Shown: positions 1-62,978 of the stretch, piece after piece | Layout: each line of letters begins with the position of its first letter | How positions within the stretch are numbered: position 1 is the first letter of the stretch | Source of the DNA: Candidatus Bathyarchaeia archaeon | GTDB lineage: Archaea > Thermoproteota > Bathyarchaeia > Bathyarchaeales > Bathycorpusculaceae | Length of the DNA: 64,000 bases | Direction: 5' to 3' | Assembly (NCBI GenBank): GCA_049516875.1 | Contig: JBEKSS010000014.1 | Coordinates: 19,743-83,742, forward strand | Notes under the pieces: model-generated | Databases searched by the model: none | Seen by the model: only the letters and a program-made list of their open reading frames with translations | Told to the model about the DNA's origin: nothing | Translations under genes and position numbers: made by a program

Positions 1-96
1 AAAGCTTTAGAAGCAAAGTTCAGTGTGTATTCGCTGTAGCCGTTGCTTTTCACGTCTATTAACACGTTGATGATGTTTTCAGGATGCTTGTTCAAA
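1..96 (-). CDS. 5' part of a probable further tyrosine integrase (intC of a third element), running off the left window edge
   Basis: Immediately past the att copy at 120-143 the minus strand reads LNKHPENIINVLIDVKSNGYSEYTLNFASKA. This resembles the start of the 14156-15094 integrase (LAEFMIHCEKQAFADATIETKYKIL). Only about 30 codons are visible. Confidence 0.45.
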
Positions 97-213
97 AAAG
101 ACTGACGTGCTGCTAAGAGGGCTGGCGTGTTGGTCGTAACCCGTCATTAGCCTTAGTAATTTTTCATTTTGTTGTTTTTGTTCTTCTGGTTTTGTGTTGT
201 TTGGGTTTTCCAT
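79..213 (-). pseudogene. Integrase N-terminal fragment (intN) of element 2, cut by att
   Basis: ORF MENPNNTKPEEQKQQNEKLLRLMTGYDQHAS(PLSSTSVFFEQAS*) with GAGGT RBS. It crosses att in the same GYDQHAS frame as 6351-6626 and the integrase. Confidence 0.65.
120..143 (-). repeat. att direct repeat 3 (duplicate of rnpB 3' end)
   Basis: GGCTGGCGTGTTGGTCGTAACCCG, identical to 6386-6409 and 15073-15096. Confidence 0.95.
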
Positions 214-1026
214 TTTCTGTTACCTCTGTCATGTATATATCAACCCAACTTCCTAATTTATGGTTGACGAGGAGACAATATGCCTTTCTAGCATGATGCA
301 AGCATGAAGCGAAGCGCACTTGGTGGCTGACGCCAGATAACGAGCTTGCTATGGCTAGGACAGATAGCTTTCAAACCCTTCCCCCTTAAATTGCGAATGG
401 GGGAAAGGCTTATGTCTCCGAGGAGCGCGCGCTGTATTGTTGTCTTCTAGGTATAAGCTTCTAGATGGTTACCATAGCTCCTTTAGTGGCTTTAACGTTT
501 CTTGCCCTTGGCAGGAAGTTGCTGTCTCAACTGTTTCTTTTTCGCTTCTTTATCCCGTTCTATCTTTTTCTGTTGTGCGATTTGAGTATTCTTTTGTTTA
601 CGTTTCATTACACTCGGCATAAATCTCAGCTACAAATTAACGATAAATAAACAAGCTAAAAAATATTTCTTTCGCATTAATGGAGGAAGCCAATAATATC
701 CAAAACTGACGCGTCTTTCTTTCATTTCATTAAAGAAGCCAACTTTATGGTAAAAAGAGAAAAAGAGTTTTGCAAAGCTCTTTCTTGGGGCTTAAGAAGC
801 CTGTGTTTTGCTTTGCTTTTCCTAAGTCTAGAAGAGGCTCGGCTTACAGATTTTGGGTCTTGGGGCGCGCGCTAGGAGTTAAAGCGCGTTGCAGAGGGGT
901 TTTGGGGTTGAGAATTCTGGAACGCATGCTGGCTTTAGCGCGCGCTGTCGGTGCTGGTGTTCTAGGTTTTCAATCGAAGGTTCTTCCACAAATCATAAGA
1001 CTGAAAACAGTAGATATAACAAATGA

Positions 1027-1995
1027 TTGAAAATGAGCCGAAAACTTGTTTTGATGTTGACCTTGACACTTCTCATTGGCACGTTGGACTTGTCATTTGA
1101 AGTTCAAAGGGTTGAAGCATCTGGAACCATTTACATACGGGCTGACGGAAGTATAGACCCGCCAACAGCACCTATTTCAACAATTGACAATATCACATAC
1201 AGCTCAACGGGTAACATTAACGACAGCATCATTATCGAGCGGGATAACATTGTGGTTGATGGAGCACGCTACACCGTGACTGGAAACGGATATAGCGGGA
1301 ACGGAATAACGCTTACTGACAGGAACAACGTAACAGTGAGAAACATGACGATAAAAAACTTCTACATCGGCACCTATCTCTACTCTTCTTCTAACAATGT
1401 TTTGTCTGGCAACAGCGTCACAAACAACTCTTATGGCATTTTGCTCGTGTCTTCTTCTAACAATGTTTTGTCCGGCAACAACGTCACGGCAAACAACGGA
1501 AACGGCATCTATCTCCTCACACCTTCTTATCTCCTCACTTCTTCCGATAACAACACCTTGTCCGACAACAACATCGCAAACAACAACGCTGCCATAGAGC
1601 TCGACTCTTCTGATGACAACGTCTTGTCCGGCAACAACATCACAAACAGCGGGATAAGTGTCGAGCTCGTTTCTTCTTCAGGCAACAGTATCTACCACAA
1701 CAACTTCATCAACAACACCCAGCAGGCATTAACCAGCGAGGGCTATACCAACAGCTGGAATGAGAGCTATCCTTCTGGGGGCAACTGCTGGAGCGACTGC
1801 AACGGAACAGATGCAAACCATGATGGCATCGGTGATACCCCGTACATCATTGACGCAAACAACACAGACAACTATCCACTTATGGTTCCATATACAATTC
1901 CAGAGTTTCCAGCATTCCTCATTCTGCCGTTATTCTTCATAGCAACACTACTGGCGGTCATAGTGCAAAGAAGAAAACACCCTCGCGCGCGCTAG
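1027..1995 (+). CDS. Secreted NosD/CASH parallel beta-helix protein with PEF-CTERM-like sorting signal
   Basis: Signal peptide, repeated SSNNVLSGNNVT beta-helix units, GNCWSD...DGIGDTPY motif, C-terminal IPEFP + TM + RRK. Confidence 0.85.
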   Translation: MKMSRKLVLMLTLTLLIGTLDLSFEVQRVEASGTIYIRADGSIDPPTAPISTIDNITYSSTGNINDSIIIERDNIVVDGARYTVTGNGYSGNGITLTDRNNVTVRNMTIKNFYIGTYLYSSSNNVLSGNSVTNNSYGILLVSSSNNVLSGNNVTANNGNGIYLLTPSYLLTSSDNNTLSDNNIANNNAAIELDSSDDNVLSGNNITNSGISVELVSSSGNSIYHNNFINNTQQALTSEGYTNSWNESYPSGGNCWSDCNGTDANHDGIGDTPYIIDANNTDNYPLMVPYTIPEFPAFLILPLFFIATLLAVIVQRRKHPRAR

Positions 1996-2011
1996 CGTGC
2001 GCATGCCAAAA

Positions 2012-2668
2012 TCAATTTTTCTTGATTGACTTGATAACCTTGTTTGTCAGTTCTGTACACTGTTTCAACGCAGCTTTGTTCTTTAGGACTTCGCCCTTTT
2101 CATCACCTGCTCTGACGTTGACCGCTATGAAGGGAGGACGATCGTGTGAGACTAATGTCAACCCAAGAGATTCGATATACTCTACAACAGTACGCAGTGT
2201 TTCCTTCTTGAATCTGCCCGTGCCTGACAAGGCAAAAACGCAGAAAGGTTGTTGCTTCGGTAGAAGCTTATAGTTTGGTTCTGCGAAGGTGTGTTTGTAG
2301 CCTTTGTGTTTTCGCATATGAACAATTGTGTCCAGTCTTTCCAAGAAAGCTAAGAATTTTGAGGAAGCCAACAGATACTTGGGGAATATGAACATTAACG
2401 CGTCGGCTTTCTTCATCTCTGCGAGAATCTGGTTCAGATCATCTGTAAGGACACATTCTTCGTGCACACATTTTTCGCAGAGAACGCAAAACTCAATCTT
2501 CTTGCTTGCCAATTGGATTATTCGGGACTTGGAACTTGTAGACTCGAGGATAGACTTGGCTAATGCGTAACAGTTGCCATCGTTTCTGTGGGAGCCCACT
2601 ATCGCCAGAAGTTTTGTTTTCATAGACATAATTAAGCTGGTTTTCATTAAAGTCTTTATTGGTACCAA
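2012..2668 (-). CDS. Flavodoxin-family / iron-sulfur flavoprotein (NADPH-dependent FMN reductase fold); start probably at about 2623-2629
   Basis: GSHRNDGN FMN-binding loop, CxxCxxCxxxxC motif, DDLN..ADA. Confidence 0.8.
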   Translation of the reverse strand: MVPIKTLMKTSLIMSMKTKLLAIVGSHRNDGNCYALAKSILESTSSKSRIIQLASKKIEFCVLCEKCVHEECVLTDDLNQILAEMKKADALMFIFPKYLLASSKFLAFLERLDTIVHMRKHKGYKHTFAEPNYKLLPKQQPFCVFALSGTGRFKKETLRTVVEYIESLGLTLVSHDRPPFIAVNVRAGDEKGEVLKNKAALKQCTELTNKVIKSIKKN

Positions 2669-2709
2669 CTGACGCGCGCGCTAAGTAACAATACGCAGCT
2701 TTTGTTGGT

Positions 2710-2822
2710 CTTTTGTAACAAAATACTGTAACAAAACGCAAAAATCGGGGAAAAACTCCAGTTTCCAAAAAGTCAATAGAGAGTCCATGCATTTTGGCTT
2801 TTTTTCAGACTTTTGTGACAGG
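2710..2822 (+). repeat. Dispersed ~115-bp repeat, copy 1 (three TGTRACA units)
   Basis: CTTTTGTAACAAAATACTGTAACAAA identical to 61668-61693; similarity continues about 90 bp. Confidence 0.75.
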
Positions 2823-3049
2823 AAACAAAACTCCTAGAAATAAGCTTCTTTCTAGGAAATAGAATGAACTCTTCAACGTTTCCGACTTAACACCAATTAT
2901 AACCTTTCTGTGCAAAAGGCATTTTGACAAGTTCACCGCAAAACAGAGGAACTAGACAAGGATAGAAGGAAATGACGAACAAGGCGATCACGGCTTGGTT
3001 GTCTGAGGAGAAGAAACTGCAAATTGGATAGTGCGCACAAAGTGTAGGT

Positions 3050-3840
3050 TCAACTGCCTTTTTTCAGGAAATCTAGCATCTGCTTCATTTCTCTGTTCTT
3101 ATCGTTCTCTGTGGAATAGTCTCTGAAAAACTCGAATACAAGGTACTTCAGACTCTTGCAACGTTTCAATTGGTCTGTTATGAAGCCCAATTCTTGGACT
3201 GTTGGCTTATAGTGACCAAACCATTTTTTTCGCGGATCCTAGCGACAGAAAGATGGGCTGTGCATATTTCATCATTCAAACGAGAAACCCAATCAACAAG
3301 AGCTTCCATCTTCCCCTGATTTGACTCCAGAACGTGTCCTATGTCCATGCAGGAGAATAGGCTACTGTTATCCATAACCTTTGCATAGGTTCCCAAATTC
3401 GAGAATATGCCATTATTACAGTTTTCAACCGTTATCTTGCCAACTCTCTTGATTTCCTTCCCCATTTCTTTCAATGTTTTGGCTATGCGGGACGAAGTGA
3501 CGTTTTCTTCTTCAAAGCTCCCCAAATCCGTCTGTATGTGAATGTTGAAGTATTCTGACTTGATTCGCGATGCAAAGCTTGCTACCGATAAGATGGTATC
3601 ATGACTACCTTTTCGGACTCCTTCCCAAGGAGAGTACAAATAGATCGTCTCCCAAGGAGATTGAACACCTGCCTCTAGAGAGTATTCTTCAAGAGCCTCT
3701 AGTATTTTTCCTGTGTCTTCATCTAACCATGTGGGTGTGTCTATTATGATATCAACGAAATCAAAACTGAGGTTGCCAGCGATTGTTATGCCATTGACGA
3801 TTGAACCATGTCTAAAAATCACAGGAAACCCGAATTTCAT
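3050..3840 (-). pseudogene. Sugar-phosphate isomerase/epimerase (AP endonuclease 2 TIM barrel), frameshifted at an A7 run near 3224-3230
   Basis: NIH, TVEN, CMDIGH and AHLS motifs. After the A7 run another frame continues KWFGHYKP...YLVFEFF...KKGS* to 3050. Confidence 0.65.
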
Positions 3841-4095
3841 CTTGGGTCACGGATACAATAGCACGCGTGAATACTTTATAAAATAAACGCGCGCTCTTTT
3901 ACTTTCCAACCATGATTCAAAAGTGTGTCGTTAAATGGGAAAAGATAACATTAAACTTATTAACGATATCCTAAATGCATTGCATTTTAGCGTCTGATAC
4001 TCAATGAATTTAGTGAACGCACGTTTCTGTCAGCTGGTAGTCTAGTAGGTACGTTTTGATTTTGCCCTCAACTTGTGAATCGAAGGACTCGAAGG

Positions 4096-4833
4096 CTAGA
4101 GAAAAAAGCGTGCATTCAGTTCTGTTATTGGTAAAAATCTCTGGAATGCTTCTCTGATGTCACCGCTGTTTTCCAATTCGTATAGATATCCTAGTGCCCA
4201 GTAATCTTCTCCGTCGAAAGATTGATTCAACATTCCCCTAAGGTATTTTTCAATATGCGTTCCAAGGCACATCGAATTGCAGACGAAATGTAATCCCCAA
4301 TTTCTTTCGTTTTCACCGACCAGATAAGCGTCGATGTATTGCTTGATTGTACTCGCGAGTTCCCCATCATTTCTCCAGCTAAGCTGTTTCGTCCTGTCGT
4401 CACTAAGTAATTCTAGAGCAATTTCAGTTCCTTTAGAAGCGAAGTTAAGTATTTCATCAACAGAAGAGCTGTAATCTGAAAGTACCTTAGGTCTATCAAG
4501 CTCAAATTCATAGTCTCTTATCTCAAGCTTGTCCTGTTGGGGGTTGACGAGGAATCTTGAAGACAAGTCAGCCATTGCATCTCGGATTTCCGGTGGGATT
4601 TGTGTTTTCTGTTCCTCTGAAAGGTAAATGCTGCGACTTGTTGGTGGATTCATCGAAGGTATGCTGAGACAGGCGTAGAGCGAATCATCAGGAGTGCGGG
4701 GAGATTCGAAGTGGTAAGTCAGGACACAGCCGTTGATCAGCGAATTTCGCCACTTGAGGACTAATGATCTGAATAATTTGTGCAGCTTTATCTGCATGTC
4801 AACTTTGCATTTAAAATCAAAATGCACCCACAA
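4096..4833 (-). CDS. Hypothetical protein
   Basis: 245-aa ORF of normal composition, no motif recognised. Confidence 0.6.
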   Translation of the reverse strand: MWVHFDFKCKVDMQIKLHKLFRSLVLKWRNSLINGCVLTYHFESPRTPDDSLYACLSIPSMNPPTSRSIYLSEEQKTQIPPEIRDAMADLSSRFLVNPQQDKLEIRDYEFELDRPKVLSDYSSSVDEILNFASKGTEIALELLSDDRTKQLSWRNDGELASTIKQYIDAYLVGENERNWGLHFVCNSMCLGTHIEKYLRGMLNQSFDGEDYWALGYLYELENSGDIREAFQRFLPITELNARFFL

Positions 4834-5171
4834 GGCTCTTCCACATCGGTAGCTAGCTAGTTTCAGCTATAACTTTTCCGCAAAATCCTGTAAGGTTTCC
4901 TTGTGTGTCTCCTGTCGCCCCCGTGGCCCCGGGTCCGTGGCCCCCTTTTCTTTTTCCATTTTCCTTAGGAAAAATTAGAGGTGCCTCTTTCCCTTGCCCA
5001 CCCCTTTTGTGCGTGTGTGGGTGATATGGAGAGAGTAGGTAGGTGTGTGCTTGAGTGTGTGTTAGTAAGAGTCGTAGAGAGTAGTAGAGAGCGCGTGGCG
5101 TGGTGCGGCTTGAGGGGTAAAGTCTTATCCCAAACCCAATTCATAGTTGACTGGCAGGGTCTGAAGGAGAC

Positions 5172-5477
5172 GTGGGCGTTTCGACAGGAGCACATTGGAA
5201 ACGAAGGCTAATCTCTCTCGTCTGGATTCTTTTGCCATTTTTTTCGTATGGTTTGTATCTGACTTGGTTTGATGGGGGCGTTCTCGAGGGGATGGAAGCT
5301 GAATCTGTTGTTGTGTATGTTCCCCTTGCCTTTCTGCTTGCTTTTCTTGATTTGATTGTCAATAAGTGGCTGCTACTGATGCTGTATTACGTGTTGTCCT
5401 TTGTAGCGCTATTCGTCGGTTACTACATTTATGACAAACGCAGGCAAAGGGTGCGCACGCTACCGCAAAAAACCTGA
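5172..5477 (+). CDS. Small membrane protein
   Basis: GGAG RBS, about 3 hydrophobic segments. Confidence 0.5.
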   Translation: MGVSTGAHWKRRLISLVWILLPFFSYGLYLTWFDGGVLEGMEAESVVVYVPLAFLLAFLDLIVNKWLLLMLYYVLSFVALFVGYYIYDKRRQRVRTLPQKT

Positions 5478-5623
5478 ACATTATTGTTACCGTCTGCTTT
5501 GTTCGTCGTTCATCCATTTTGTGACTATTTCTTCTGCATTGGTTTGGTTTGGGGTAAAGTTTTATCCCAAACCCAAACCCAAAAACAGAAAAGTGTGTGT
5601 TACGAAGTTATGAGTGACGCGGA

Positions 5624-6310
5624 ATGAAACGAAAAGTCGTTCTTGTGCTTTGCATATTGCTTGTGATGGTGATTCTAGTATCGTCAATGGTTTACTACTT
5701 CTGGTACGTGCCTTATGTGCACGTTCCACAAGCGCTCGGGCGGCAGTATATGTCGGTGTCTTTCTGGCCAGAATTTATTGGAGATATCAAAAGCAGCCCG
5801 ACTCCCCTCCACCTAAACTATGAAGGGAATGCGATGAACGTAACTTATGTCTCAATAGAAATCAATGTGACCAATAGCTACTTCCAACCTGTATACATAA
5901 ACTTCAGCGGTTTTGACGTAGTCTGGCTCATATATAAAAGGACGGTAACTGACCCTTCAGATGTCCTGAGTAACAGAGACTCTCTCGTTTGGGGGGCTTA
6001 CTATTATTTGGTTTATGAAGCAATATCGAACCCACGTAGAGGTATCCACGACTTCGCGGGAGACGATCTAGAATTCTATTCAGCAAATAGAAACAACACA
6101 AATTTCCAGACAGACATACCGAGCGGTAGCAGATCACAGTACTATGGGTACGCGTTGTTCGATGATCACATGGGCGGCGAGTGGTATGGCCAATATTATT
6201 CAAATCCTGAGTCACTCGTATCTCCAGGAACGTATTTCATGTACTGCATAATCTACGACTTTTCATGCACTCTACAAAACATAACCATAACTTCAGCAGC
6301 CCTACACTAG
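5624..6310 (+). CDS. Membrane-anchored/exported hypothetical protein
   Basis: N-terminal basic + hydrophobic anchor, Ig-like C-terminus (PGTYFMY), several N-x-S/T sites. Confidence 0.7.
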   Translation: MKRKVVLVLCILLVMVILVSSMVYYFWYVPYVHVPQALGRQYMSVSFWPEFIGDIKSSPTPLHLNYEGNAMNVTYVSIEINVTNSYFQPVYINFSGFDVVWLIYKRTVTDPSDVLSNRDSLVWGAYYYLVYEAISNPRRGIHDFAGDDLEFYSANRNNTNFQTDIPSGSRSQYYGYALFDDHMGGEWYGQYYSNPESLVSPGTYFMYCIIYDFSCTLQNITITSAALH

Positions 6311-6350
6311 CAAAAACGATCCTGTATTGAGACTCAGCGCACGCGCTATC

Positions 6351-6626
6351 TTAGGGTTCGACTCTTGTGGTATTCGGGAAATTAAGGCTGGCGTGTTGGT
6401 CGTAACCCGTCTTTAGTACAAGTAATTCTGGTTTTGGTGTTGTCGATTGATCTTTAGCTTGTGGTTGGTCTTTGGTTTCGGGTTTGGTTTCTTCATTCAT
6501 ACTTTTTGCCCTTTCTAGGAGTTTGGGGATTTCTATTTCTGTCCTTAGTCTCCCGTGTTCTATTTCGTCACGTGTTCTTTTTTGGGTTTCGTTTGTTTGA
6601 TTTGTCATGTATATCCTCCAATTCAC
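6351..6626 (-). pseudogene. Integrase N-terminal fragment (intN) of element 1; probable start 6608
   Basis: GGAGGA RBS before MTNQ. Reads ...ELLVLKTGYDQHASL across att, in the same frame as the integrase C-part. Confidence 0.75.
6386..6409 (-). repeat. att direct repeat 2 (distal att of element 1)
   Basis: 24-bp identity (26 bp with the AA at 6384-6385) to the rnpB 3' end. Confidence 0.95.
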
Positions 6627-6833
6627 CGCGTGCGTCGGTTTTTCTTTTTAACGTTTGGTCTCGCATGTACATCAACCCACATTCCTAATCGTTTCATTGA
6701 CGAGGCGACAATATGCCTTTCCCGACTGAGCAACTTTTTAGGACTGCGGGGAGCGCGCGCTGTGCGGGCGACTTGTTGCTCTGTTGGATTTCCGCGCTAC
6801 TTTACTGAGCGTTAAAACGGCGGGTGTTTATAG

Positions 6834-6907
6834 CGTTCTGTTGTTTACTGTTGTTTGTTGTTTGTTCTGTTGTTGTTTGTTCTGTTGTTGTTTGTTCTGT
6901 TGTTGTT
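6834..6907 (+). repeat. T/G-rich tandem repeat, about 3 copies of TTTGTTCTGTTGTTG
   Basis: Directly visible 15-bp periodicity in the non-coding part of element 1. Confidence 0.7.
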
Positions 6908-7155
6908 AGCGTGTGTTAGTTAATTCGTTCCTGTTAGCGAGAGTATAGCGAGTTGTTTGTGGCGTTATTGTTGCTGTTCCTTTGGCGTTCGATTGGCGTT
7001 TTGCCTATTTTTGTAGCGCGCGCGACCTTGTTGGATATTTTGTATCAGTAAAAAGTTGCGAAGGAGGCGCACCCTGAGCGGAGCGAGGGGGAAAGGCTTA
7101 TGTCGCCGAGGATTTCGAAGCGCGCGCTATAATACTTTTGCGCGCGATTTCTTGC

Positions 7156-7746
7156 TCATTTGAGCAGTTGGGATATTTTTGACAGTTTTTCCTGAGTCTG
7201 GTTTACTGAATCCACGATTTGTCGGTATTGTTTTGGATACTTCTTTGCGATTGTTATGAACTGTTTTACCACTTGGGGGGTGAATCCTGTGCGCATTTGG
7301 TTGGCTAGGATGGAATCGATGTCGGTTTGTTCTATTTTTCCCTTGGTTAATGCTGCGAGATATAATACCTCGAACGCGTTTTCTCCGAGAATCGGTGTGG
7401 TTTCTATGAGAAATTGAAGGTTAATGTCTTTTGGATAAAATTCACGTGCTCTGATAAGAATTGTTTGGGGATCTGCTCCTCTGCTTATTGCGAGGAATAT
7501 GCCTAGTTCGGTAAGCCAGAAAGACGGGTATTTTGTGCCGTGATATTCTTTAGTTGTTACGCTTTTGATCAGTCCTTTCTTCTTCAGTGTGTCGAAAGCA
7601 ATCCATGTGGATTTGTACTGCCCGTTGATTTGCTTCATAGTTTCATTAATGGTTTGAGCGTTGTTCCTTGCCAGACTCAGAATTACACGCTCCTGCAAGG
7701 GAGGAAAGTCACGTGTCTTCCTATTTTGCTTAGACATATGTCTCAC
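7156..7746 (-). CDS. Winged-helix DNA-binding protein, divergent from the Rep operon
   Basis: AFDTLKKKGLIKS...FWLTELG wHTH signature. Confidence 0.7.
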   Translation of the reverse strand: MRHMSKQNRKTRDFPPLQERVILSLARNNAQTINETMKQINGQYKSTWIAFDTLKKKGLIKSVTTKEYHGTKYPSFWLTELGIFLAISRGADPQTILIRAREFYPKDINLQFLIETTPILGENAFEVLYLAALTKGKIEQTDIDSILANQMRTGFTPQVVKQFITIAKKYPKQYRQIVDSVNQTQEKLSKISQLLK

Positions 7747-7875
7747 TGAGCTTAGATATGTTATATCTCACCATATATAAAAGTTCTTGCCTAAAACTAC
7801 TCGGTGAGAAAAGTTGTTTGAAAATTCGAAACGGAAAACTGCGCACGCTGTGCTCCCTTTGGGAGTTGATTTTCT

Positions 7876-8076
7876 ATGGCTGAGGGTAAGCTGCTGAACT
7901 GTATCTTCTGGGATGGTGTCGCTTGTAAGCATCGTAAGTCTGAGACGGTGAACATGATGGTTCGATGTTGGAGCTGTCGCCAGTTCAAGCGGTTTGTGAG
8001 ACAAATGGATGATGCTGATGCGAAAATCATGGAGGAAAATGAGAAGAGGCGTTCGGAAGGTGACGGTCTTGGTTGA
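7876..8076 (+). CDS. Small Cys-rich (Zn-finger-like) protein upstream of Rep
   Basis: CIFW..C, CWSC motifs; overlaps Rep start. Confidence 0.6.
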   Translation: MAEGKLLNCIFWDGVACKHRKSETVNMMVRCWSCRQFKRFVRQMDDADAKIMEENEKRRSEGDGLG

Positions 8077-9094
8077 CGCTGCTGTCCTCCGATTGGTTCG
8101 CTATTTTCTGGTTCTCCTTAGGTTGAACCCTCAGTTGATGGAGAATGCCTATTGGTATCTGCCCGTTCTGGACGATGGCCACGATAATTATGCGCAGGTG
8201 GGTCATAGCCCTAGCGTTGTAACTCCTTACTGTTGCTATTTCAGGGGTTGGAAGGTCTGTCGTGAAAAGGACTTGCATAAGGGTGTGGTTGTGAACGGTG
8301 TTGATTTTACGGATAAATCGGCGGTTTCCCCTTCACATCTCTGGTGTAAGAATTGGCATTGCCCTAAGTGTTTTCTTCACGGTGCTTGTGTCGTTGGTGC
8401 CCGTAGGATTGAAGACCGCCTGACTGCCTTCGTTGAGCGTGGACTTGGTAAGGTCGAGCACGTAGTTTTTTCGGTTCCAAAGGCTTCTCAGGACTTACCA
8501 TTGGAAGTCTTGTTCAAGATGCTTCCGTCAGTGGCAAAGGACAGGGGCGTGTCTGGTGTCTCAATTTTTCATGGGCGGTACATAAATACTGAGCTTGGCG
8601 GCCTTGCATGGAGAGCACATTTCCACGTGTTGGGTTTTGTTGACGGTGGCTTTTACCGTTGCAGGACTTGTGAACATGAGCGCAGTGCATGTGCTAGCTG
8701 TGACGGTTTCAAGGGTTGTGAAGTTCGAGGCTTTGCCAAAGACGGGTGGATTGTCAAGGTTGCTGATGAACGTTTGAGCATCTTTGGTACGGCGTGGTAT
8801 CAGTTAAATCACCATACGGTAAAGCTCGGTTTTCGCAGGGTGCACTCTGTCAGATGGTTTGGTAAGTGTGGCAACAGGATGCTAAAATCCAAGTACCATA
8901 GGTCTGGTGCTGGTTGCTCCTGTCCCGTTTGTCGGGCTGCTGGTCACGAGTCGGTAATGGATAATGGCGGATACTGGGGTAAACGTTTGCCTGATGATGT
9001 CTCCGATCCGCGTTACAAGTCTGTTTACGCTGTGCCTGATTTGGATGAAGAGGGCTTGCCAAACTTTGCCGATGGAGGTGATAGACTTGGTTAA
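8009..9094 (+). CDS. rep: HUH rolling-circle replication initiator with Zn-binding motifs (IS91/SNJ1-RepA-like architecture); start probably GTG about 8060
   Basis: CKNWHCPKC Zn motif, motif I HVVFSVP, HUH motif AHFHVLGF, motif III TAWYQLNH, C-terminal CPVC. Confidence 0.8.
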   Translation: MMLMRKSWRKMRRGVRKVTVLVDAAVLRLVRYFLVLLRLNPQLMENAYWYLPVLDDGHDNYAQVGHSPSVVTPYCCYFRGWKVCREKDLHKGVVVNGVDFTDKSAVSPSHLWCKNWHCPKCFLHGACVVGARRIEDRLTAFVERGLGKVEHVVFSVPKASQDLPLEVLFKMLPSVAKDRGVSGVSIFHGRYINTELGGLAWRAHFHVLGFVDGGFYRCRTCEHERSACASCDGFKGCEVRGFAKDGWIVKVADERLSIFGTAWYQLNHHTVKLGFRRVHSVRWFGKCGNRMLKSKYHRSGAGCSCPVCRAAGHESVMDNGGYWGKRLPDDVSDPRYKSVYAVPDLDEEGLPNFADGGDRLG

Positions 9095-9245
9095 GGTCCA
9101 AATATGTCCTTTCGATGGCTTACCATGCGAGTTTGTGGATTCTTGCGATGATGCTATGGTCTTGCTCTTAGAGCGTGAAGGTCTCAAAGGCTTCGATACT
9201 GAGAATGGTGAACATTGTTCACGCGCTGTTATTCGGCTAAAATGA
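9087..9245 (+). CDS. Small Cys-rich protein coupled to the end of Rep
   Basis: GGAGGTGA RBS, TTG start, CPFDGLPCEFVDSC motif. Confidence 0.55.
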   Translation: MVKVQICPFDGLPCEFVDSCDDAMVLLLEREGLKGFDTENGEHCSRAVIRLK

Positions 9246-9287
9246 GTTTCGTACCAAGCGCGCGCTCTAATCTTCTCTTTTTTTCTC

Positions 9288-10082
9288 TTAGCGCGCCCAC
9301 AAGCGCCATTTTTTGGTTTCAGACAAAATAGTTTTGCCCAATTCAGTAAAGTAGTATTCTGGCTGACCGCCATACACTTTTTTCCTGAAGGGAATCGGCT
9401 TTGCACTTCTAATGACTCCGAGATTGATAAGGTCACGGGCGATTCTTCTCAAGTCGTTCTTCTCACAGCTTTCATGGTAGAGACCATACTCTCCTTTGCG
9501 GCTTGAATCGAATGCACATAAGTCAAAACCCCTATCAACATATCCTCGGACTACTTCCAAAAATGAGATCATATCAATGTCCAATGCGCCCAAAACATTT
9601 CTGACCATTAAGTCTCTCGTTAAGTCCACTTGTTTTTCGGCATTTATCACAAGCTTTCTTATTTTGTCTCTTGAATTTTTTGCATTCTGTGTGGAAAATT
9701 TGTTCCATCTGAGGTGCCTAATATCAAAAGAAATATTTTCTGACTTTTCATCCCTTACGATGATTACCTCCTGTGGCAGACGGATGGCATGAGCTATGCC
9801 CAGTTCGTACATAACATTTGGATTTGGTCGGTCTTTTTCATCATTCGAAATATCGAATAACAACAACTTTGCTCTGCCGACTCCTTCCAAAACATCAATA
9901 GGAATCGAGTCGCTAACAAGTCGCTCTTTTGTACGATATGGTTTCAGACCGCATGAAAGAATAGCAGGTTTAAAGATATCTTTCCATCGTTGTTCGAATT
10001 GAGAGGAGAAAGGCATTGCCACAAATACTTCCATTGTCCTATCGAATGACCTGAACAAGTCCATGTAAGTTTTTGGGTACAT
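9288..10082 (-). CDS. Nucleoside 2-deoxyribosyltransferase/TIR-like domain protein with possible C-terminal wHTH
   Basis: VFVAMPFS, D-I-S, NPNVMYELGIAHA, FDIRHLR motifs; YYFTELGK at the C-terminus. Confidence 0.75.
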   Translation of the reverse strand: MYPKTYMDLFRSFDRTMEVFVAMPFSSQFEQRWKDIFKPAILSCGLKPYRTKERLVSDSIPIDVLEGVGRAKLLLFDISNDEKDRPNPNVMYELGIAHAIRLPQEVIIVRDEKSENISFDIRHLRWNKFSTQNAKNSRDKIRKLVINAEKQVDLTRDLMVRNVLGALDIDMISFLEVVRGYVDRGFDLCAFDSSRKGEYGLYHESCEKNDLRRIARDLINLGVIRSAKPIPFRKKVYGGQPEYYFTELGKTILSETKKWRLWAR

Positions 10083-10165
10083 TCCTATTGCATCATTCCA
10101 ATTTCTTGTACCTTACGTGGAACTTTCCAAACAAATTGGTTTCACCAGACATTTGATTGAGTGCC

Positions 10166-12025: not shown

Positions 12026-12037
12026 AGGGGAACACTG

Positions 12038-13321: not shown

Positions 13322-13456
13322 GTCAAGGCTAGTCATCTATGAAAGGTGCTGGAACCCTTAACCTATTATGTGGAAACTGCAATGCGCGCGCGTTAGAAAG
13401 CGTTATATGAAAATGAACTCGATTAAAAGTCGAGGATAGCGCGGGCGACATTTCGG

Positions 13457-14038
13457 GTGGAGGGGCACAATTTGAGACTTAACTATTTAGGTTTTATCGG
13501 AGGCATATTGGCTTTCATCAGCTTGGTGTTACCGTGGTGGGCTATGAGCATTTCGGGTTCAGCCATGGAAATTAACGTCTCTGACGAGGTTACTCTGTAC
13601 CTATACCAAACGAGAGTGACCATAATAGGTTTATCAGTATCCGCTTCAACGAATCTTCCTTGGTATTGTTCGATTGCCTTAGCATTTGTGGTGTTAGGCG
13701 GCTTGCTGGGCTTGGCAGGTAGTGTCATTGCTAATGGGAGAAGGATTGTACTTTCACTTGGCGCCATACTTGCCTCGTTTTCGGTTATCATATTCGCTGT
13801 AGGATTGCAAAACCAGATTTCAAATGGGTCTTTGGTTTCGGGTTTGCCAACAGGAGTAGGTTTGTTCTCCAGTGGTGCATACGGCTATGGAATGGATTAC
13901 TCGTCGTACCTGTCTTTCGGTTTTTGGCTGGCCTTGGTTGCCGCGATTATAATGTTTGTCGCACTAACGAGAGAGCGCATGCTAGAACCCGCTGAGACAA
14001 TAATACCACCTCAACCTTCTCCCCCTGCGCCGACGTAG
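13457..14038 (+). CDS. Four-TM membrane protein with Pro-rich tail
   Basis: LPWW motif, GFWLAL, hydrophobic segments. Confidence 0.75.
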   Translation: MEGHNLRLNYLGFIGGILAFISLVLPWWAMSISGSAMEINVSDEVTLYLYQTRVTIIGLSVSASTNLPWYCSIALAFVVLGGLLGLAGSVIANGRRIVLSLGAILASFSVIIFAVGLQNQISNGSLVSGLPTGVGLFSSGAYGYGMDYSSYLSFGFWLALVAAIIMFVALTRERMLEPAETIIPPQPSPPAPT

Positions 14039-14155
14039 AATCGCGCGCGCTGTTGTTGTTTTGAGTTTTTGCGAGTTGGAGCGCGAAGCGAAGCTGAGCG
14101 CGACATTGTGGTCAGGAATGACATTGAATAGAAAAAAAGGTGGGCTGTTTGTGTC

Positions 14156-28290: not shown

Positions 28291-28478
28291 TAGCGCGCAT
28301 GCGTGTTCCTAAAATGGTCAAAAATGGTTTTAATTCCGCTCTGCCCGTTTATCCTGTGTTCGAGGAGGACAAAATACCCAGAGAAATCAAGAACAGACAC
28401 GGAGCCCAAGGCCGTCCCTAGATCATGAAGGCGAATAAAAACCATTTTAGGCCAATTTCGGAACAAACATGCGCGCTA
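28291..28478. mobile_element. MITE with 38-bp terminal inverted repeats beginning TAGCGCGC
   Basis: Left TAGCGCGCATGCGTGTTCCTAAAATGGTCAAAAATGGT vs right (reverse complement) TAGCGCGCATGTTTGTTCCGAAATTGGCCTAAAATGGT, 32/38 identical. Confidence 0.8.
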
Positions 28479-39609: not shown

Positions 39610-40097
39610 TTAGCGCACGCCCTGCGCGCTAAAAACAGTTGTAGCAGTCAAACCTAACTATGCAACACGGAGACCATCAGCGGCTTCACCAGAATATCCT
39701 CTGCTTTAATGTAAAAGCGTCCCGAAAATGTGAGAAAAAAGGGAGAGTAACCCATCGCTGTTAGCTCTCTATTTAGTTTTCTTTTTACTTCCTTTTTTCT
39801 TCTTTCCGGTCGGACTTTTAGACACGATTGCGACCTCAATCCTACAGCTATCAGCGATTCCTCTATATATAATTTCATATGCACTCAGTGTACTGACACA
39901 TTATCCAAAATCTGCCCAAATACGGTTATTAACAATAAATTAACAATTTTTTGAAGAGAAAATGTTGCTTGGAATTTTCCGGATGCGAGGAGTCAACGCA
40001 CAGTCAGATGGGAATCGAACTGGCCGGTCCGACCTGACAATGTCGTCCAACATTCAAGGGAATTGCTTAGCGTGCTTGCGGAGCGCGCGAGATCAAG

Positions 40098-40323
40098 CGG
40101 CGCGCTGGCCTGTCCCGAAATTGGTGTAAAATGGTTTTTATTCTTCTTTTACCTATTCGCGTCTAATACGGGCTTGTTTGACGTGCAAATCCTTGCCGTG
40201 TTGACGGATGGCAAATCACGGGAGCTCCGGCACATCCTACAGGAAGCATTGTTTTCCCATATCCAAACCCTAAAAAAGGAATAAATACCATTTTTAACCA
40301 TTTTAGGACAAGCCAGCGCGCTA
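40098..40323. mobile_element. MITE of the same TIR family as 28291-28478, carrying a wHTH gene remnant
   Basis: GCGCGCTGGCCTGTCCCGAAATTGG..AAAATGGT.TTTATTC vs reverse complement GCGCGCTGGCTTGTCCTAAAATGG..AAAATGGT.TTTATTC; internal FDVQILAVLTDGKSRE. Confidence 0.72.
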
Positions 40324-40333
40324 GCAAAGATGA

Positions 40334-41305
40334 TTAGTCCGCTAGTTTCAGCTGCCTTTTCAGGGTCTTGTAGCGGTTTCTCACCGTGACCTCAGTGACG
40401 CTTGCTGCTTCGGCTATGTCCTTCTGTGTCTTCTTCTCGTTGTTCTGCAAACAAGCGATATACAATGCTGCAGCAGCCAACCCCATAGGGTCTTTTCCGG
40501 CGGCAGCCCGTTTATTTCTGGCTTCTCGAAGAATCCGTATAGCAATTCCTTGGGTCTTGCCCGAAATTCCTGTTCTTTCAGCGATTTTTGAAACGTACGT
40601 GAGGGGGTCAGCGATGGGCATGTGCATGTCAAGTTCACGCAGCAAAAGGCGGTAGCAACGGGCAACGTCCTTTTTATCGACTAGGCTTGCCTCTGCGATT
40701 TCATGAAGTGCTCTTGGGGTTCCACTTCCACGGCAAGCCGCATAAGCCGCAGCAGCCGTTATGGCTGCGATAGACCTTCCGCGGACTAGGCTCTTATCTA
40801 AGGCTTTACGGTAAATGACCGCAGCCTTCTCTTTGATTGGGCGTGGAATGTAGACCTTGCCTGAGAGGCGGTCAAGCTCAGCCATTGCCTGGGCAAGGTT
40901 TCTGTCGATTGAAGAGTGCACTCTTGAGCGTATCTGCCATTTTCTTAGACGCCACATTTGCAGACGTGTCGAGAGTGGAAGTTTTCTTCCGAAGGCGTCA
41001 CGGTCAACTTGGCTTATGGCCGTTGACAAGCCTTTATCATGGACAGAATAAGACGTTGGCACTCCAACGCGGCTTCTTGACGCTTTCTCTTCCTGGGTGA
41101 AAGCGCGCCATTCCGGTCCTTTATCCATCATTTGCCCGTATAAGACGAGTCTGCAGTCGCCGCAAACAGTCTCACCAGTATCATAATCATGGATAAGGTT
41201 TACACCAGCGCATTCCGGACACTTATCTCGCAACGTTTGCTGAGACCGTGCCACTTTCTTTCTCTTTTCCATCTTTTCTGTCTCTATCATGTGGAGTAGG
41301 GTCAT
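40334..41305 (-). CDS. tfb: Transcription initiation factor IIB
   Basis: CPEC Zn ribbon, GPEWRAF, HDKGLST, cyclin repeats, TEVTVRNRYK. Confidence 0.97.
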   Translation of the reverse strand: MTLLHMIETEKMEKRKKVARSQQTLRDKCPECAGVNLIHDYDTGETVCGDCRLVLYGQMMDKGPEWRAFTQEEKASRSRVGVPTSYSVHDKGLSTAISQVDRDAFGRKLPLSTRLQMWRLRKWQIRSRVHSSIDRNLAQAMAELDRLSGKVYIPRPIKEKAAVIYRKALDKSLVRGRSIAAITAAAAYAACRGSGTPRALHEIAEASLVDKKDVARCYRLLLRELDMHMPIADPLTYVSKIAERTGISGKTQGIAIRILREARNKRAAAGKDPMGLAAAALYIACLQNNEKKTQKDIAEAASVTEVTVRNRYKTLKRQLKLAD

Positions 41306-41792
41306 AACAGATAACCTTCACAAAACGCAATTCGTCATATTACTGATCAGAATTTGAGCGATTTGATCGTTAGTCCGCGCGCGCTTGTACAATTGCAATG
41401 TGTGCTGAATAAACGTTTCGGCATGGTAATTTTTCAGTTAAGGTTTGATACCGTTAAGATAAATTGGACTAAAACCAATGAATACAAGAAGCTACAGTAA
41501 AGATATAACTGGGAAAACTAAAGAAACTGGTGGAGGGCAACTATGTCCAATCAAGCTTCATCTCGGGGGTTCAACTTTTTTAAAGGACTCTTAAGATTCT
41601 AGCTGATTCTTCCGAAGACATAAGGCTTTGACAGATATCGTATTTGTATTTAAGGTCCACTAGCCATGCAGGTTAAGGCGGCATTTCTTTTGGGCGCTGT
41701 GATATCGATCACTAGCGCGCGCTGTAAACTTGTGTTACGGAAAGTTTAAAACTTCTTGAATGACAAGGTATTAGTCGTAGGAGGAAAAGATT

Positions 41793-49504: not shown

Positions 49505-49988
49505 GAAATCCTCAAGCTCTTTCGAGAAATAGACAGCTTGGGAAGGTTCCCGCTTATTGGCTGAGAACTAAGGCACCCTTGTATATTTAACCTTCAGTCA
49601 AACAACTACGCATTCAATAAATCCATGGACTTCAACATTATGCCCCGTTTCATGACATTAGAGACACTCGTTACAAATGAAGCGTACGAGTGGAAGCAGT
49701 ATCATAGGCGTCGTAGTTCATTAGCCAGCTTTTTTGCTTACATGCTCATATATCCTTTCCATCTCCTCTTCAACCAGTCTCTCTTGTTCAGTCTCAATCT
49801 TTGGAGAAATGTCTGGGACGAAAGGGTAATAATCACGCTTGACATCCGCTCACGGAATAGCGCGCGTTTTTTCACTAATTATCAGCAAGCGTGTGTGCGT
49901 TAGAGTTTCGCGCGCGCTGTGACTGCAGAACCGCAACAACATATCGTTAATATACTCGACGTAACTTTTCAGATGTGGACGTGAATCT

Positions 49989-50630
49989 TTGTCTGGACCG
50001 ATTGACATAGTGCGTTCTATTCATAATGCGTTTCGTCGAGATATTTTCCAGATTGATGATTCAGTCTTCAAAATAGCGCGTGCTGGTGAGGATCCAACGC
50101 CCATTTTCGACCGACTCCATACCGTGGCCGAGATTTTGGACTACCATGCGAAGGGTGAGGAGGCGGCGGTTTTCCCCGCTGTTGACAACGCGACCCCTCT
50201 TGTGGCGAAGGCTTACTTCATGGATCACCGTGAGCTTGACACCATGGTTAGTGGGCTGGAAGCAATGCGAAGAACACCTGATCCTCTAACAACAGCGAGG
50301 GCGACAGCAGTCCTAGCTTCGCATTTAAGAATTCATCTGGACAAGGAAGACGCTCATCTGTACGCGATTCTCAGAGAGCGAACAACAGAGAGCGAGCAGG
50401 CCTCCATTGTTGGACTCATGTCAAAAAAAGTGCCGCCTGACAGATTTCCAACTCTAGTTCAATGGCTGTTCCCCTTACTTGACTTTGAAGACCGAGTTGT
50501 AATTACAAAGGGGTGGATGACTCTGATGCCGCCACAGGTTTTTGCTGGTCTCAAACCGCTAATAAAAAAGACCGTTGCTGAAAACTGGGTCGAGCTGGCT
50601 CGGCGAATTCCAGAGCTCGACGACAAGTAA
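49989..50630 (+). CDS. Hemerythrin-like (HHE) domain protein
   Basis: H.AFRRD, YHAKGEE...FP, DH, HLDKED..LY. Confidence 0.85.
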   Translation: MSGPIDIVRSIHNAFRRDIFQIDDSVFKIARAGEDPTPIFDRLHTVAEILDYHAKGEEAAVFPAVDNATPLVAKAYFMDHRELDTMVSGLEAMRRTPDPLTTARATAVLASHLRIHLDKEDAHLYAILRERTTESEQASIVGLMSKKVPPDRFPTLVQWLFPLLDFEDRVVITKGWMTLMPPQVFAGLKPLIKKTVAENWVELARRIPELDDK

Positions 50631-50822
50631 ACCTGCACGACTTTCCAAAACGTTTGGGTTTGGGCGCGCGCGTTTACAAACAGTTTTCGAAATGGGTTTT
50701 CCAACGCGCTTGCCAAAGGCGAAAAATTCTAGAAACAAATTAAATACAAGAAACACAGAAGACAGAACTGACGCGGCAACATGCACCACAGAAACGTGGC
50801 ATCAATTAGATGTGGGAACTGA

Positions 50823-61781: not shown

Positions 61782-61876
61782 AACAGTTCTCGAAGAATTG
61801 AGCTTCTTTAGCGCGCGCTTGATTCCAGCCGCAGAAATGCGAAGTTTCATAAAAGGTTTCAGCATAAGCATAGTAT

Positions 61877-62389
61877 ATGAAGGAATTGCGCACGCGTGCG
61901 CAGCGTGCTAACCTGACCAAGGTGCTTTTCGCGCTGATAAAGAATTCAAAGCGGAGCGACAGGGAGCTGGCTAGAGCTCTGCAGCTCTCTCAGCCAACCG
62001 TGACCCGACTTCGGAAAATTCTGGAGAAAGAAGCGATTGAACAATATACTGCGATCCCGAACTTGTCCTACTTGGGTTTTGATTTGATATCATTCACGTT
62101 CTCCACTACAAAGGAGCTTGTTAACCCTCTCGAGGACAAAGGAAAGAAATGGACAGCGGAACAGCCAAGCGTCATGTTCGCCAGCACTGGACAGGGAATG
62201 GACGCAGACGCGGTCATGGTTTCAGTGCACAAGGACTACGCGGACTTCGCCAAGTTTTACCAGAACTTCAGAAGAGACTGGGGTGGTTCCCTTCAGAACT
62301 TCAGGACTTTTCTGGTTAGCGTGAAGGGAAGCGTACTGCTAAAGGCGTTGTCACCAAACTGCTTAGTCGAATCATATGCCAAGGAATAA
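61877..62389 (+). CDS. Lrp/AsnC-family regulator
   Basis: NSKRSDRELA..L..SQPTVTR....LE; Y.AIP....LGF. Confidence 0.85.
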   Translation: MKELRTRAQRANLTKVLFALIKNSKRSDRELARALQLSQPTVTRLRKILEKEAIEQYTAIPNLSYLGFDLISFTFSTTKELVNPLEDKGKKWTAEQPSVMFASTGQGMDADAVMVSVHKDYADFAKFYQNFRRDWGGSLQNFRTFLVSVKGSVLLKALSPNCLVESYAKE

Positions 62390-62522
62390 GCCTGGCTAAA
62401 CACTCACGTTAGCGGTTAACTTCGACCATTAACCATAGAATCCGGTTTTGATTTCTTCAACAAGTCAGCACAGCAAACCTTGATCAAGGTGGATGAGATT
62501 AGCGCGCGTTCTGTGACTTATG

Positions 62523-62924
62523 CTAGCTTATGAGTTCAGCCAACGTGCCGAATGCTTCGAGGAAGCTCTTTCCTTTAGGAGTGGTTCTGTAGGTGGCTGT
62601 CCTTTTGAGAATTTGTACGTCCAGTAGCCCAAATCTAGTGAGCACGTCCATGTACTTGTGCAGCTGAAGACTGCTTAGCCCGACTCTCCGCATGATTTCC
62701 GTTTTCCTGGTTCCTCCAATCGCACAAGTCAGCATGTCCGAGAATATGCCTAACCGATCCCTGTTGCCCTTCGTCTGCGAAAACGAACCTTTCTGCATCA
62801 TGAAAAAGCTTGCAGTGATATTATGTATAAATCCGTTAGGTACGAGCGCTAATGACTCACCTATCGTTTGAAACGTGGAAGAACAAAGTCTGCCCAGTTT
62901 TGACACCCATTCACGTAAAGACAT
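62523..62924 (-). CDS. Winged-helix regulator (start likely about 62801)
   Basis: RDRL.I..D.L...KTEIM....L......Y...L...GLL; Y.TT.KG..FL. Confidence 0.8.
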   Translation of the reverse strand: MSLREWVSKLGRLCSSTFQTIGESLALVPNGFIHNITASFFMMQKGSFSQTKGNRDRLGIFSDMLTCAIGGTRKTEIMRRVGLSSLQLHKYMDVLTRFGLLDVQILKRTATYRTTPKGKSFLEAFGTLAELIS

Positions 62925-62978
62925 GTATTGGGCAGTTTTTTGCGCGCGCTAATACGGTTTGACCGTCATACTCTTCCG

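Follow-up and report, generated by a model that had tools for sequence, protein, structure and literature searches.

The motifs that bracket single genes near the start of the window (the whole 64,000-nucleotide stretch of DNA analysed here) are ordinary members of a lineage-specific population of palindromic, alternating GC runs, with about 1,100 copies in each genome. Sister species have some DNA blocks in common that stand in different contexts, and the ends of these blocks coincide with runs; the run sites turn over fast. We tentatively propose that the runs mark junctions in a flexible genome that swaps modules, and that they derive from the tips of an IS5-like transposon family that left them or acts on them. 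The genes between positions 936 and 2683 are best read as accessory modules lying between GC-run marks, and not as transposons with their own TA-flanked ends.

The focal genes and the GC-run population

The focal region contains the following features:

425..872: run-bounded block, 98–99 per cent identical in G004 and G002 and 92 per cent identical in G003
492-620, minus strand: basic 42-aa ORF inside block 425-872
865..874, plus strand: GGCGCGCGCTA, a GC run plus TA, at the right edge of the conserved block 425-872
936..945, minus strand: TAGCGCGCGC, some 90 nt ahead of the NosD-like gene
1027..1995, plus strand: NosD/beta-helix protein gene (Pfam PF05048), with its final codons and TAG within the run-TA-run junction
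1984..2002: abutted run-TA-run junction CGCGCGCGC-TA-GCGTGCGC, one of three such sites in the genome (at most one mismatch)
2012..2668, minus strand: FMN_red-like flavoprotein gene, accessory
2673..2683, plus strand: CGCGCGCGCTA, directly upstream of the flavoprotein gene

All motifs quoted in the original prediction are present, and because ORF 1027–1995 ends with the TAG at 1993–1995, the junction does supply the stop codon of the NosD-like gene, as had been claimed. Abutted run-TA-run sites number three in the present genome (G000, a 97 per cent complete Candidatus Bathyarchaeia MAG of a peat archaeon) and 0–4 in its relatives. The flanks of block 425–872 are unrelated across all four genomes (G000, G002, G003 and G004). 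The flavoprotein gene was not found in G001–G004, the four other genomes of the genus, and neither it nor the NosD-like gene has a syntenic counterpart in the relatives compared. A flavoprotein homologue in another genus (G033; 52 per cent identical) is likewise accompanied by a GC run at the 3' end. The bin 2002–2668 is shallower than its neighbours, a mere hint of relatives lacking the flavoprotein gene.

In the window, GCGCGCTA occurs 25 times, GCRCGCTA 29 times and GCGCGC 94 times, against 1.19 (mean of 100 shuffles, maximum 6), 2.23 and 12.5 copies, respectively, expected from dinucleotide shuffles. Across the 2.43 Mb of G000 there are 1,123 alternating GC runs of at least 6 nt, intergenic for the most part, usually of the form A/TA-(GC)3-5-T/TA and mostly (GC)4-5 in length. 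ORFs make up 81 per cent of this genome by a crude gene call, yet 292 of the 367 copies of GCGCGCTA are intergenic, and another 13 lie at gene edges. Conservation around GCGCGCTA is limited to the (GC)n extension, with nothing conserved beyond the TA, and A...T flanks are strongly favoured (AGCGCGCGCT, n = 98, versus TGCGCGCGCA, n = 6). The presence of TA on one side of a run is independent of its presence on the other: double-TA palindromes number 36, versus about 44 expected from the single-side TA frequency (arithmetic from the counts). In prokaryotes, alternating GC runs are normally under-represented (PMC4060949). The five genomes of the genus contain 48–231 copies of GCGCGCGCTA, versus 6–22 of a reversed control, and G033, G040 and G047 contain 88–152; richness is patchy across the family, with 0–3 copies in 43 of 61 genomes.

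It is almost inconceivable that the runs reflect compositional chance or an assembly artefact. Nothing was found in favour of such an origin, the MAG source of the sequence being the sole reason to ask. The enrichment over dinucleotide shuffles is at least 20-fold, counts of the reversed pattern are 10-fold lower throughout the genus, and runs of 8–10 nt are shorter than assembler words. Moreover, contigs from four other public sequencing runs (Logan contigs, of insufficient length for filled and empty forms) span 824–5103 or 1468–4729 with zero differences; the focal arrangement is therefore not an artefact of a single assembly. A lone contig (X3) joins 425 to 14053, both GC runs, with a 30-nt side, and is untrustworthy.

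Orientation, block ends and turnover of runs

The original prediction described single-gene mobile cassettes with very short inverted TA-GCGCGC ends that insert at a TA, which is thereby duplicated. We consider such cassettes very improbable. The inward-facing pairs do exist at the quoted sites, but nothing special about their orientation was confirmed: motifs alternate in 20 of 24 steps in the window (our own count), whereas genome-wide they alternate in 149 of 278 steps (P = 0.25; 36 self-overlapping palindromes left out), as in random orientation. Of the pairs that enclose exactly one gene, 11 face inward, and the three remaining orientations account for 12, 16 and 6. Precise presence or absence between TA dinucleotides or motifs was also expected, but in the comparison of G000 with G002 not one collinear indel out of 62 (a set that excludes the two focal genes, which lack a syntenic relative) combines a motif-bounded filled site with a plain-TA empty site. 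No run lies at any boundary of 46 of these indels, and the 16 with a run are about what the intergenic run density gives (about 20 per cent, a rough estimate). Likewise, the clear insertions 15431–17042 and 19319–21403 have no bounding runs, contrary to the proposal that the motif is a cassette boundary. Nor are termini recognizable past the tip: the tip is present alone, without the approximately 20–45-nt repeat that MITEs keep, and the rest of the inverted repeat (at least 11 of 15 positions) is found on just about 62 of 2,240 run sides. Searches for the repeat did not hit the focal sites.

Several other motif sites and run-bounded blocks, and a neighbouring tyrosine recombinase, occur in the window:

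7014..7129: inward-facing motif pair (7014, minus; 7122, plus), 115 bp apart, gene-free inside
13384..14050: single-gene block (ORF 13457-14038) with unrelated flanks, bounded on either side by GC runs in the window as well as in G003
14156-15013: tyrosine recombinase
28291..28478: MITE of 187 bp with inverted repeats of about 45 nt starting TA-GCGCGC-ATGCGTGTTCC; about 25 genome copies
39611..39631: TAGCGCAC...GCGCGCTA pair, 21 bp
40100..40323: second MITE, of repeat type GCGCGC-TGGC(C/T)TGTCCC, with GCGCGCTA at 40316-40323 as its right end
40323..41384: block with a TFB-paralogue gene (40334-41305, minus) and runs at 40316-40321 and 41376-41384; 90–92 per cent identical in G001 and G004
49909..50672: hemerythrin-gene block with runs at 49909-49917 and 50664-50672; 90–91 per cent identical in G001 and G002
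61809..62951: motifs at 61809 (minus), 62500 (minus) and 62944 (plus) around two HTH genes

What speaks for cassettes is that most ends of IS and MITE copies have a TA next to them, that abutted run-TA-run junctions exist, and that in two genomes, amid unrelated flanks, runs bound some single-gene blocks on either side (13384–14050 and 425–872). The bases outside the runs at two-ended blocks are, however, AT, TG, TA and GG, with TA at one of four. Homology to G003 at 6752–7115 begins at the run 6753–6760. An Rfam scan of the window returned RNase P RNA alone, and the window contains no tRNA.

A comparison of junctions between G000 and 1.18 Mb of G002 relates the runs to block ends more generally. 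Among HSPs of at least 90 per cent identity, 26 of 57 ends have a run no more than 3 nt away in one genome or the other (12 in G000, 19 in G002 and 5 in both), far above the 0–11 found in controls offset by 15–200 nt. The run-associated fraction is 19 of 37 at context breaks and 7 of 20 at collinear ends; for HSPs of 80–90 per cent identity, it is 29 of 186 versus 14 of 277. At 21 of the 26 run-associated ends, the run is in just one of the two genomes. The 9-nt GCGCGCGC-T stands in place of 2,203 nt in the comparison of G000 C12:66714–68918 with G002, and an 11-nt motif is inserted within an otherwise aligned spacer at C1:121879. Among 32 orthologous collinear gaps, a run is present in G000 at four, in G002 at eight and in both at one.

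Relative to genes, runs are enriched 0–35 nt after stop codons (187 versus 124 expected) and depleted 0–35 nt before start codons (50 versus 97 expected). This placement, after stops and upstream of but outside promoter-proximal DNA, would suit a functional boundary element, that is, a protein-binding or structural signal at transcription-unit ends (for termination, insulation or supercoiling relief) that travels with genes, rearrangement being a side effect. Several runs directly upstream of TATA-like boxes, and the run at the 3' end of the G033 flavoprotein homologue, point the same way. Such a role is nonetheless quite improbable, given that run presence is not conserved (1 shared of the 11 run-bearing gaps) and is patchy across genomes, that all four spacer types have similar run rates (25–35 per cent), that dimer binding sites do not usually vary in length as (GC)n does, and that such a role leaves unexplained why homology ends 3 nt or less from a run. 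A promoter (BRE-like) role was rejected, as there is merely a mild excess of runs 45–95 nt upstream of start codons.

An IS5-family element with the same tip

Both an IS5-family insertion sequence and its MITEs end in inverted repeats with a conserved TA-GCGCGC tip, and so the original suspicion that the motif is related to transposons was borne out. The proposed genome search for a transposase flanked by the same ends located the one intact copy in G000 (G000:C7:36805–37906), as well as copies in relatives; two MITEs lie in the window. Same-ended elements of 1.08–1.1 kb encode DDE_Tnp_1 plus DUF772 (in G002:C1:34476–35552, two ORFs match PF01609 at 1.7e-22 and PF05598 at 5.4e-12), and transposase frames of 328 aa (L108) and 333 aa (G000:C7) are intact. 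In G000, G002, G003, G004, G032, G033, G040 and G047, transposases are bounded by inverted repeats of 19–27 nt that start with GCGCGC, over spans of mostly 1,082–1,223 bp (one of 1,904 bp). The 187-bp MITE family and shorter families, with the first ~23 nt in common, also begin with TA-GCGCGC. TA precedes the tip at most IS and MITE ends; a clean filled/empty pair was not found, the single candidate locus being complex. The GCGCGC tip is retained with transposases that are 29–81 per cent identical, including those of motif-poor G032 and G005, which indicates that the tip belongs to the element and not to its target. The transposase family is present in all eight motif-rich genomes (the five of the genus plus G033, G040 and G047) and has matches, mostly distant, in 7 of 43 motif-poor genomes.

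Four findings favour the reading of the runs as tip-derived junction marks: the motif is identical to the IS and MITE tip, it occurs together with the transposase family, it turns over fast, and it lies at the ends of recently shared blocks. The runs would be tip remnants after element loss, or sites cut by the transposase. Breaks at self-complementary GC ends would make runs junction hot spots. On this reading, the runs lie at transcription-unit edges within the flexible part of the genome and are the points where small modules (often one gene and its promoter) are joined or lost and pass from one species of the genus to another.

Several observations weigh against this reading. On more than 95 per cent of run sides the remaining repeat has left no trace, nor do decayed repeats form a tail; thus, simple mutational decay of MITE ends fails to explain the runs. 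The elements have a (GC)3 tip, which is shorter than most runs, at (GC)4-5. The lack of an excess of double-TA forms is evidence against classical TA-TSD excision footprints. The eukaryotic PIF/Harbinger superfamily is kin of IS5. Its excision is reported to have been precise in 109 of 110 events (PMC2836001). G037, G055 (67 per cent complete) and G018 are moderately motif-rich (34–56 copies) and have no transposase match, and the collinear indels described above are run-free or run-associated at about the expected density.

A survey for empty sites of G000 and G002 MITEs yielded one usable locus in 37 IS/MITE pairs. At this five-genome locus, G000 has only T-CGCGCG-A, G001 and G002 carry a MITE, and G003 and G004 hold 180–480 nt with runs at the boundaries; it is here alone that the polarity of a junction (insertion or deletion) is fixed, if loosely.

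A more specific mechanism is that palindromic GCGC tips let an IS5-like transposase leave compatible, self-complementary ends at every cut, so that any DNA between two tips or remnants of tips could be released and re-ligated, in either orientation, at any other site of this kind. We judge this mechanism unlikely; if it were true, such cut-and-ligate shuffling would build the flexible genome of these Bathyarchaeia and pass modules between species.

It is somewhat unlikely that the runs are hot spots of host recombination or repair in which the IS has no part, with the self-complementary GC runs acting as universal microhomologies, as nuclease or recombinase sites or as Z-DNA-prone breaks. Unrelated DNA would then be joined at runs, and the IS would merely share or exploit the sequence at its tips. 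The excess of block ends at runs over the offset controls, the frequent presence of the run in one genome alone, and the 9-nt replacement and 11-nt insertion all agree with such a hot spot, as do the many runs without adjoining IS sequence, the three motif-bearing genomes without a transposase match, and the 3–22 tyrosine-recombinase matches per genome. Against it, integrase numbers do not follow motif numbers (3 integrase matches versus 129 motifs in G003), the runs have no conserved surroundings past the TA that could provide binding arms for a site-specific recombinase, and the 8-mer match to the tip of an IS with such diverged transposases would have to be a coincidence. Nor was a candidate enzyme found: C5 DNA methyltransferases over the family cut-off, as for a GCGC-type restriction system, are absent from all five genomes of the genus, and a Y1/RAYT transposase (PF01797) has no match in G000 or G003.

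Other candidate sources were also rejected. An IS630/Tc1-type transposase (PF13358) has no match in G000–G003, the sole match being on a GC-rich, circular-looking 1.9-kb contig of G004 without matching ends. The multi-copy families of G000 (at least 60 per cent identity) include no high-copy transposase and, by sequence reading, are ordinary cellular proteins.

Comparison with known systems

Bathyarchaeia are an uncultured, globally abundant archaeal group, and in only some of its lineages are the runs many-fold enriched, marking the points of cutting and rejoining in these genomes. Should the link to an IS5-like transposase hold, the runs would provide a simple marker, readable from sequence, of where modules begin and end in these MAGs and a testable mechanism for the movement of accessory genes without obvious mobile-element machinery nearby.

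The elements themselves resemble known IS5-family insertion sequences and MITEs in their DDE_Tnp_1 plus DUF772 proteins, length of about 1.1 kb, inverted repeats of 20–45 nt, gene-less miniatures and intergenic location. Here, however, the elements are far outnumbered by solo copies of the 6–8-nt tip, of which each genome has about 1,000, and these solo tips mark joins of unrelated DNA blocks. A literature search, of records rather than full texts, found no published description of such a solo-tip motif. Tc1/mariner-type excision leaves footprints that are palindromes of both ends' terminal bases between TA duplications, similar to TA-(GC)n-TA, but double-TA forms are not in excess here.

REP/BIME sequences and REPINs with RAYT are likewise short, GC-rich, intergenic palindromes that number hundreds per genome, are lineage-specific and are linked to a transposase. 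The runs are much shorter, form no stem-loop beyond the alternating run, and are linked to a DDE transposase instead of a Y1/RAYT enzyme.

Integron cassettes (IntI, attI, attC) share with the modules described here a small, often single-gene size, delimitation by a recurrent site and variability among relatives. In place of a 55–140-nt imperfect attC hairpin, the site here is an 8–12-nt perfect GC palindrome; only this run is conserved, and its orientation is random, unlike that of the co-oriented sites of a cassette array. The sites are also scattered over the genome, and the modules appear to carry their own promoter region.

In mosaic phage genomes, short shared linker or boundary sequences stand at module boundaries where exchange occurs. 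In contrast to these linkers, the Bathyarchaeia runs are one universal, self-complementary motif for all boundaries, and they lie on a cellular chromosome.

Alternating GC runs and the focal genes

Every motif quoted in the original prediction occurs in the window, where GCGCGC is found 94 times (12.5 expected) and GCGCGCTA 25 times (1.19 expected). Across G000, the archaeal genome holding the window (2.43 Mb in 20 contigs, encoding archaeal RNase P RNA, TBP, TFB, and RadA), GCGCGCTA has 367 sites, with 292 intergenic and 13 at gene edges, in a genome that is 81 per cent coding by a crude ORF call. Conservation around the 8-mer is limited to its extension as a GC run, and alternating GC runs of at least 6 nt (hereafter, runs) number 1,123. 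Their flanks strongly prefer A...T over T...A (AGCGCGCGCT 98 versus TGCGCGCGCA 6), and at 36 sites the palindrome TAG(CG)nCTA is complete. Runs are enriched 0–35 nt past stop codons (187 versus 124 expected), are depleted 0–35 nt ahead of starts (50 versus 97 expected), and occupy 25–35 per cent of spacers in each of the four orientation types. A reading of the runs as a boundary element bears on these positions, and we consider it quite improbable.

Features of the focal stretch (936–2683) and of its surroundings
1027–1995, NosD-like ORF, ending inside the run-TA-run junction
1984–2002, run-TA-run junction, giving the TAG stop of the NosD-like ORF
2012–2668, minus strand, FMN_red-like flavoprotein gene, between junction 1984–2002 and CGCGCGCGCTA
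2673–2683, CGCGCGCGCTA, on the far side of the flavoprotein gene from the junction
-792..95, minus strand, tyrosine-recombinase gene 1, spanning the window start
14156–15016, minus strand, tyrosine-recombinase gene 2, abutting the RNase P RNA gene
15078–15385, RNase P RNA gene

As proposed, the junction supplies the NosD stop codon: the ORF runs through (CG)4 before ending. The focal stretch is identical (0 differences) in contigs of four further public sequencing runs, and peat and wetland metagenomes contain the window stretch. The NosD-like gene is a member of a large paralogous family. No homologue of the flavoprotein gene was found in the other four genomes of the genus (G001–G004); those in four other genera are 46–55 per cent identical, and the 3' end of the G033 gene likewise bears a GC run. 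For neither gene did the genomes compared yield a syntenic relative.

The focal genes are part of a stretch lacking synteny (1–15400, extending into the contig before the window) that is flanked by the two tyrosine-recombinase genes, adjoins the RNase P RNA gene, and looks like an island integrated beside it; relatives carry different content at this place, dense in runs. Within it, HEPN_Swt1 and DUF5343 genes stand side by side (10166–11370) and may form a toxin-antitoxin or defence pair. The genome has three TBP copies that share at least 60 per cent identity (window 21409–21981; contigs C1 and C7), and close paralogues in G000 also exist for the window's topoisomerase, MFS transporter, and 198-aa protein. 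Several such paralogues cluster near C1:360–370 kb, which suggests duplicated island content.

Orientation and indels at run-bounded genes

The original prediction held that single genes form cassettes with short inverted TA-motif ends, inserted at TA. Motif orientation alternates at 20 of 24 steps in the window alone and at 149 of 278 genome-wide (p = 0.25; 36 palindromes removed). Single genes are bracketed by inward-facing pairs 11 times genome-wide, versus 12, 16, and 6 times by the other orientations, and the motifs show no preferred orientation towards gene ends (81/79/70/70). Among 62 insertion-like differences between collinear parts of G000 and G002, none pairs runs at both insert ends with an empty site that lacks one: a run is at no boundary in 46, at one insert end in 9, at the empty site only in 6, and at both insert ends and the empty site in 1. 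Two clear window-specific insertions (15431–17042 and 19319–21403) are without bounding runs. Given random orientation, the indels, and the run-free insertions, a TA-bounded cassette with inverted ends is therefore unsupported, and we consider it very unlikely.

The first of these insertions places 1.6 kb between the RNase P RNA gene and an AAA_18 gene and contains a gene without a Pfam match (15559–16944). It is missing from the same place in G002, G003, and G004, is found elsewhere in G001, G002, and G004 (79–84 per cent identity), lacks GC runs at its ends, and possibly has a short TGGAA duplication.

Runs at the junctions of shared blocks

Backbone genes of the window are 72–82 per cent identical to those of G001–G004; short blocks of the window are 87–99 per cent identical, lie elsewhere in these genomes, and end on runs. 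Homology of block 13384–14050 ends at a run on both sides in both G000 and G003, and that of block 425–872 on the left in four genomes, with unrelated DNA beyond in each case. For an unselected test, all of G000 was aligned to 1.18 Mb of G002 (about half of that genome), taking HSPs of at least 90 per cent identity and at least 200 nt and counting ends within 3 nt of a run. Such ends made up 26 of 57 usable ones in at least one genome (G000 12, G002 19, both 5), versus 0–11 when the same 57 were moved by 15–200 nt. The proportion on a run in either genome was 4.9 per cent at 75–80 per cent identity (164 ends), 9.4 per cent at 80–85 (319 ends), 9.9 per cent at 85–90 (151 ends), and 45.6 per cent at 90 or above, with offset controls at 0.8–1.9 per cent per genome. 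Runs were at 19 of 37 context breaks versus 7 of 20 collinear ends in HSPs of at least 90 per cent identity, and at 29 of 186 versus 14 of 277 in those of 80–90 per cent, some breaks possibly being missing data because half of G002 was compared. Paralogous HSP ends inside G000 fall on runs in 68 of 1,316 cases versus ~1 per cent in controls.

Block 425–872 (448 bp) looks non-coding except for one 42-aa, highly basic ORF (492–620, minus strand), and an Rfam search with it gave no match. It is 98–99 per cent identical in G004 and G002 and 92 per cent in G003, far above backbone and in unrelated contexts; the relatives' copies have ~105 additional nt at 823. A run-bounded block with a TFB (TFIIB) paralogue (40323–41384) is 90–92 per cent identical in G001 and G004, and an IS5-like transposase gene lies ~150 bp from the G001 copy (G001:C6:494926–497103). 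A ~150-nt repeat (77 per cent identical) begins at 2700–2851, 17 nt past run 2673–2683, and at 61658–61809 ends exactly at run 61809. At four loci (400–424, 7090–7115, and G000 C10 and C11), a ~26-nt segment immediately before GC runs is conserved at 96 per cent.

An IS5-family element with GCGCGC tips

MITEs of the window
28291–28478, MITE whose long inverted repeats start TA-GCGCGC
about 40100–40323, MITE whose long inverted repeats start TA-GCGCGC

The 187-bp MITE family has ~25 copies in G000 and shares its first ~23 nt with shorter families there. A 1,076-bp element of G002 with the same ends carries DDE_Tnp_1 and DUF772 ORFs, and an intact version encoding a 328-aa transposase is located in G002:C7. 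The original prediction had proposed searching the genome for a transposase between the same ends; the G000 copy is at C7:36805–37906, terminating GCGCGC-TA. Elements of G032, G033, G040, G047, and G005 retain the tip with transposases 29–81 per cent identical; because two of these tip-keeping genomes are otherwise nearly motif-free, the tip belongs to the element. A relative in G023 (41 per cent identical) is without it. No IS630-type transposase or C5 methyltransferase was found, and no Y1 transposase was consistently present. A 1.9-kb, circular-looking contig with repeated ends in G004 (C58) is GC-rich and codes for a DDE_3 transposase; it differs from the remaining genome and may be foreign to that MAG.

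Counts of GCGCGCGCTA are 48–231 across the genus (five genomes; reversed control, 6–22), 88–152 in G033, G040, and G047, 34–56 in G018, G037, and G055, and 0–3 in 43 of the 61 genomes searched. The transposase family is found in all 8 genomes richest in GCGCGCGCTA and, mostly as distant matches, in 7 of the 43 poor ones; a search of G018, G037, and G055 gave no match.

Turnover of runs is visible between G000 and G002: in the 32 collinear orthologous gaps compared, runs occur in 4 on the G000 side, in 8 on the G002 side, and in 1 on both, and 29 intergenic runs within alignments comprise 9 conserved, 18 opposite non-run sequence, and 2 indels, one a motif-sized 11-nt insertion (C1:121879). At C12:66714–68918, 2,203 nt of G000 stand against only GCGCGCGC-T in G002. 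G000 has T-CGCGCG-A at C4:144701, where G001 and G002 have a homologous MITE and G003 and G004 180–480 nt bounded by runs; parsimony suggests that G000 lost the element but retained a run.

From these sequence comparisons, the runs may be tip-derived marks of an IS5-type IS/MITE family at which DNA would be broken and rejoined, a reading that we hold with somewhat less than even confidence; that the host itself makes them hot spots, without the IS, seems to us unlikely. It is limited by the >95 per cent of run sides without further inverted-repeat sequence (a decay tail is absent), by most runs exceeding the (GC)3 tip in length, and by the independent presence of TA on the two sides of a run. 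We take the PIF/Harbinger superfamily to be kin of IS5. Precise excision in this eukaryotic superfamily, described in PMC2836001, is a further limit.

IS5-family elements and MITEs are already known, and alternating GC runs are usually suppressed, according to PMC4060949. The literature listings searched yielded no solo repeat-tip motif, in ~1,000 copies, at junctions of interspecies-shared blocks. What appears new here is that ~1,000 solo repeat-tip copies are enriched despite the usual suppression of GC runs and coincide with the junctions of shared blocks.
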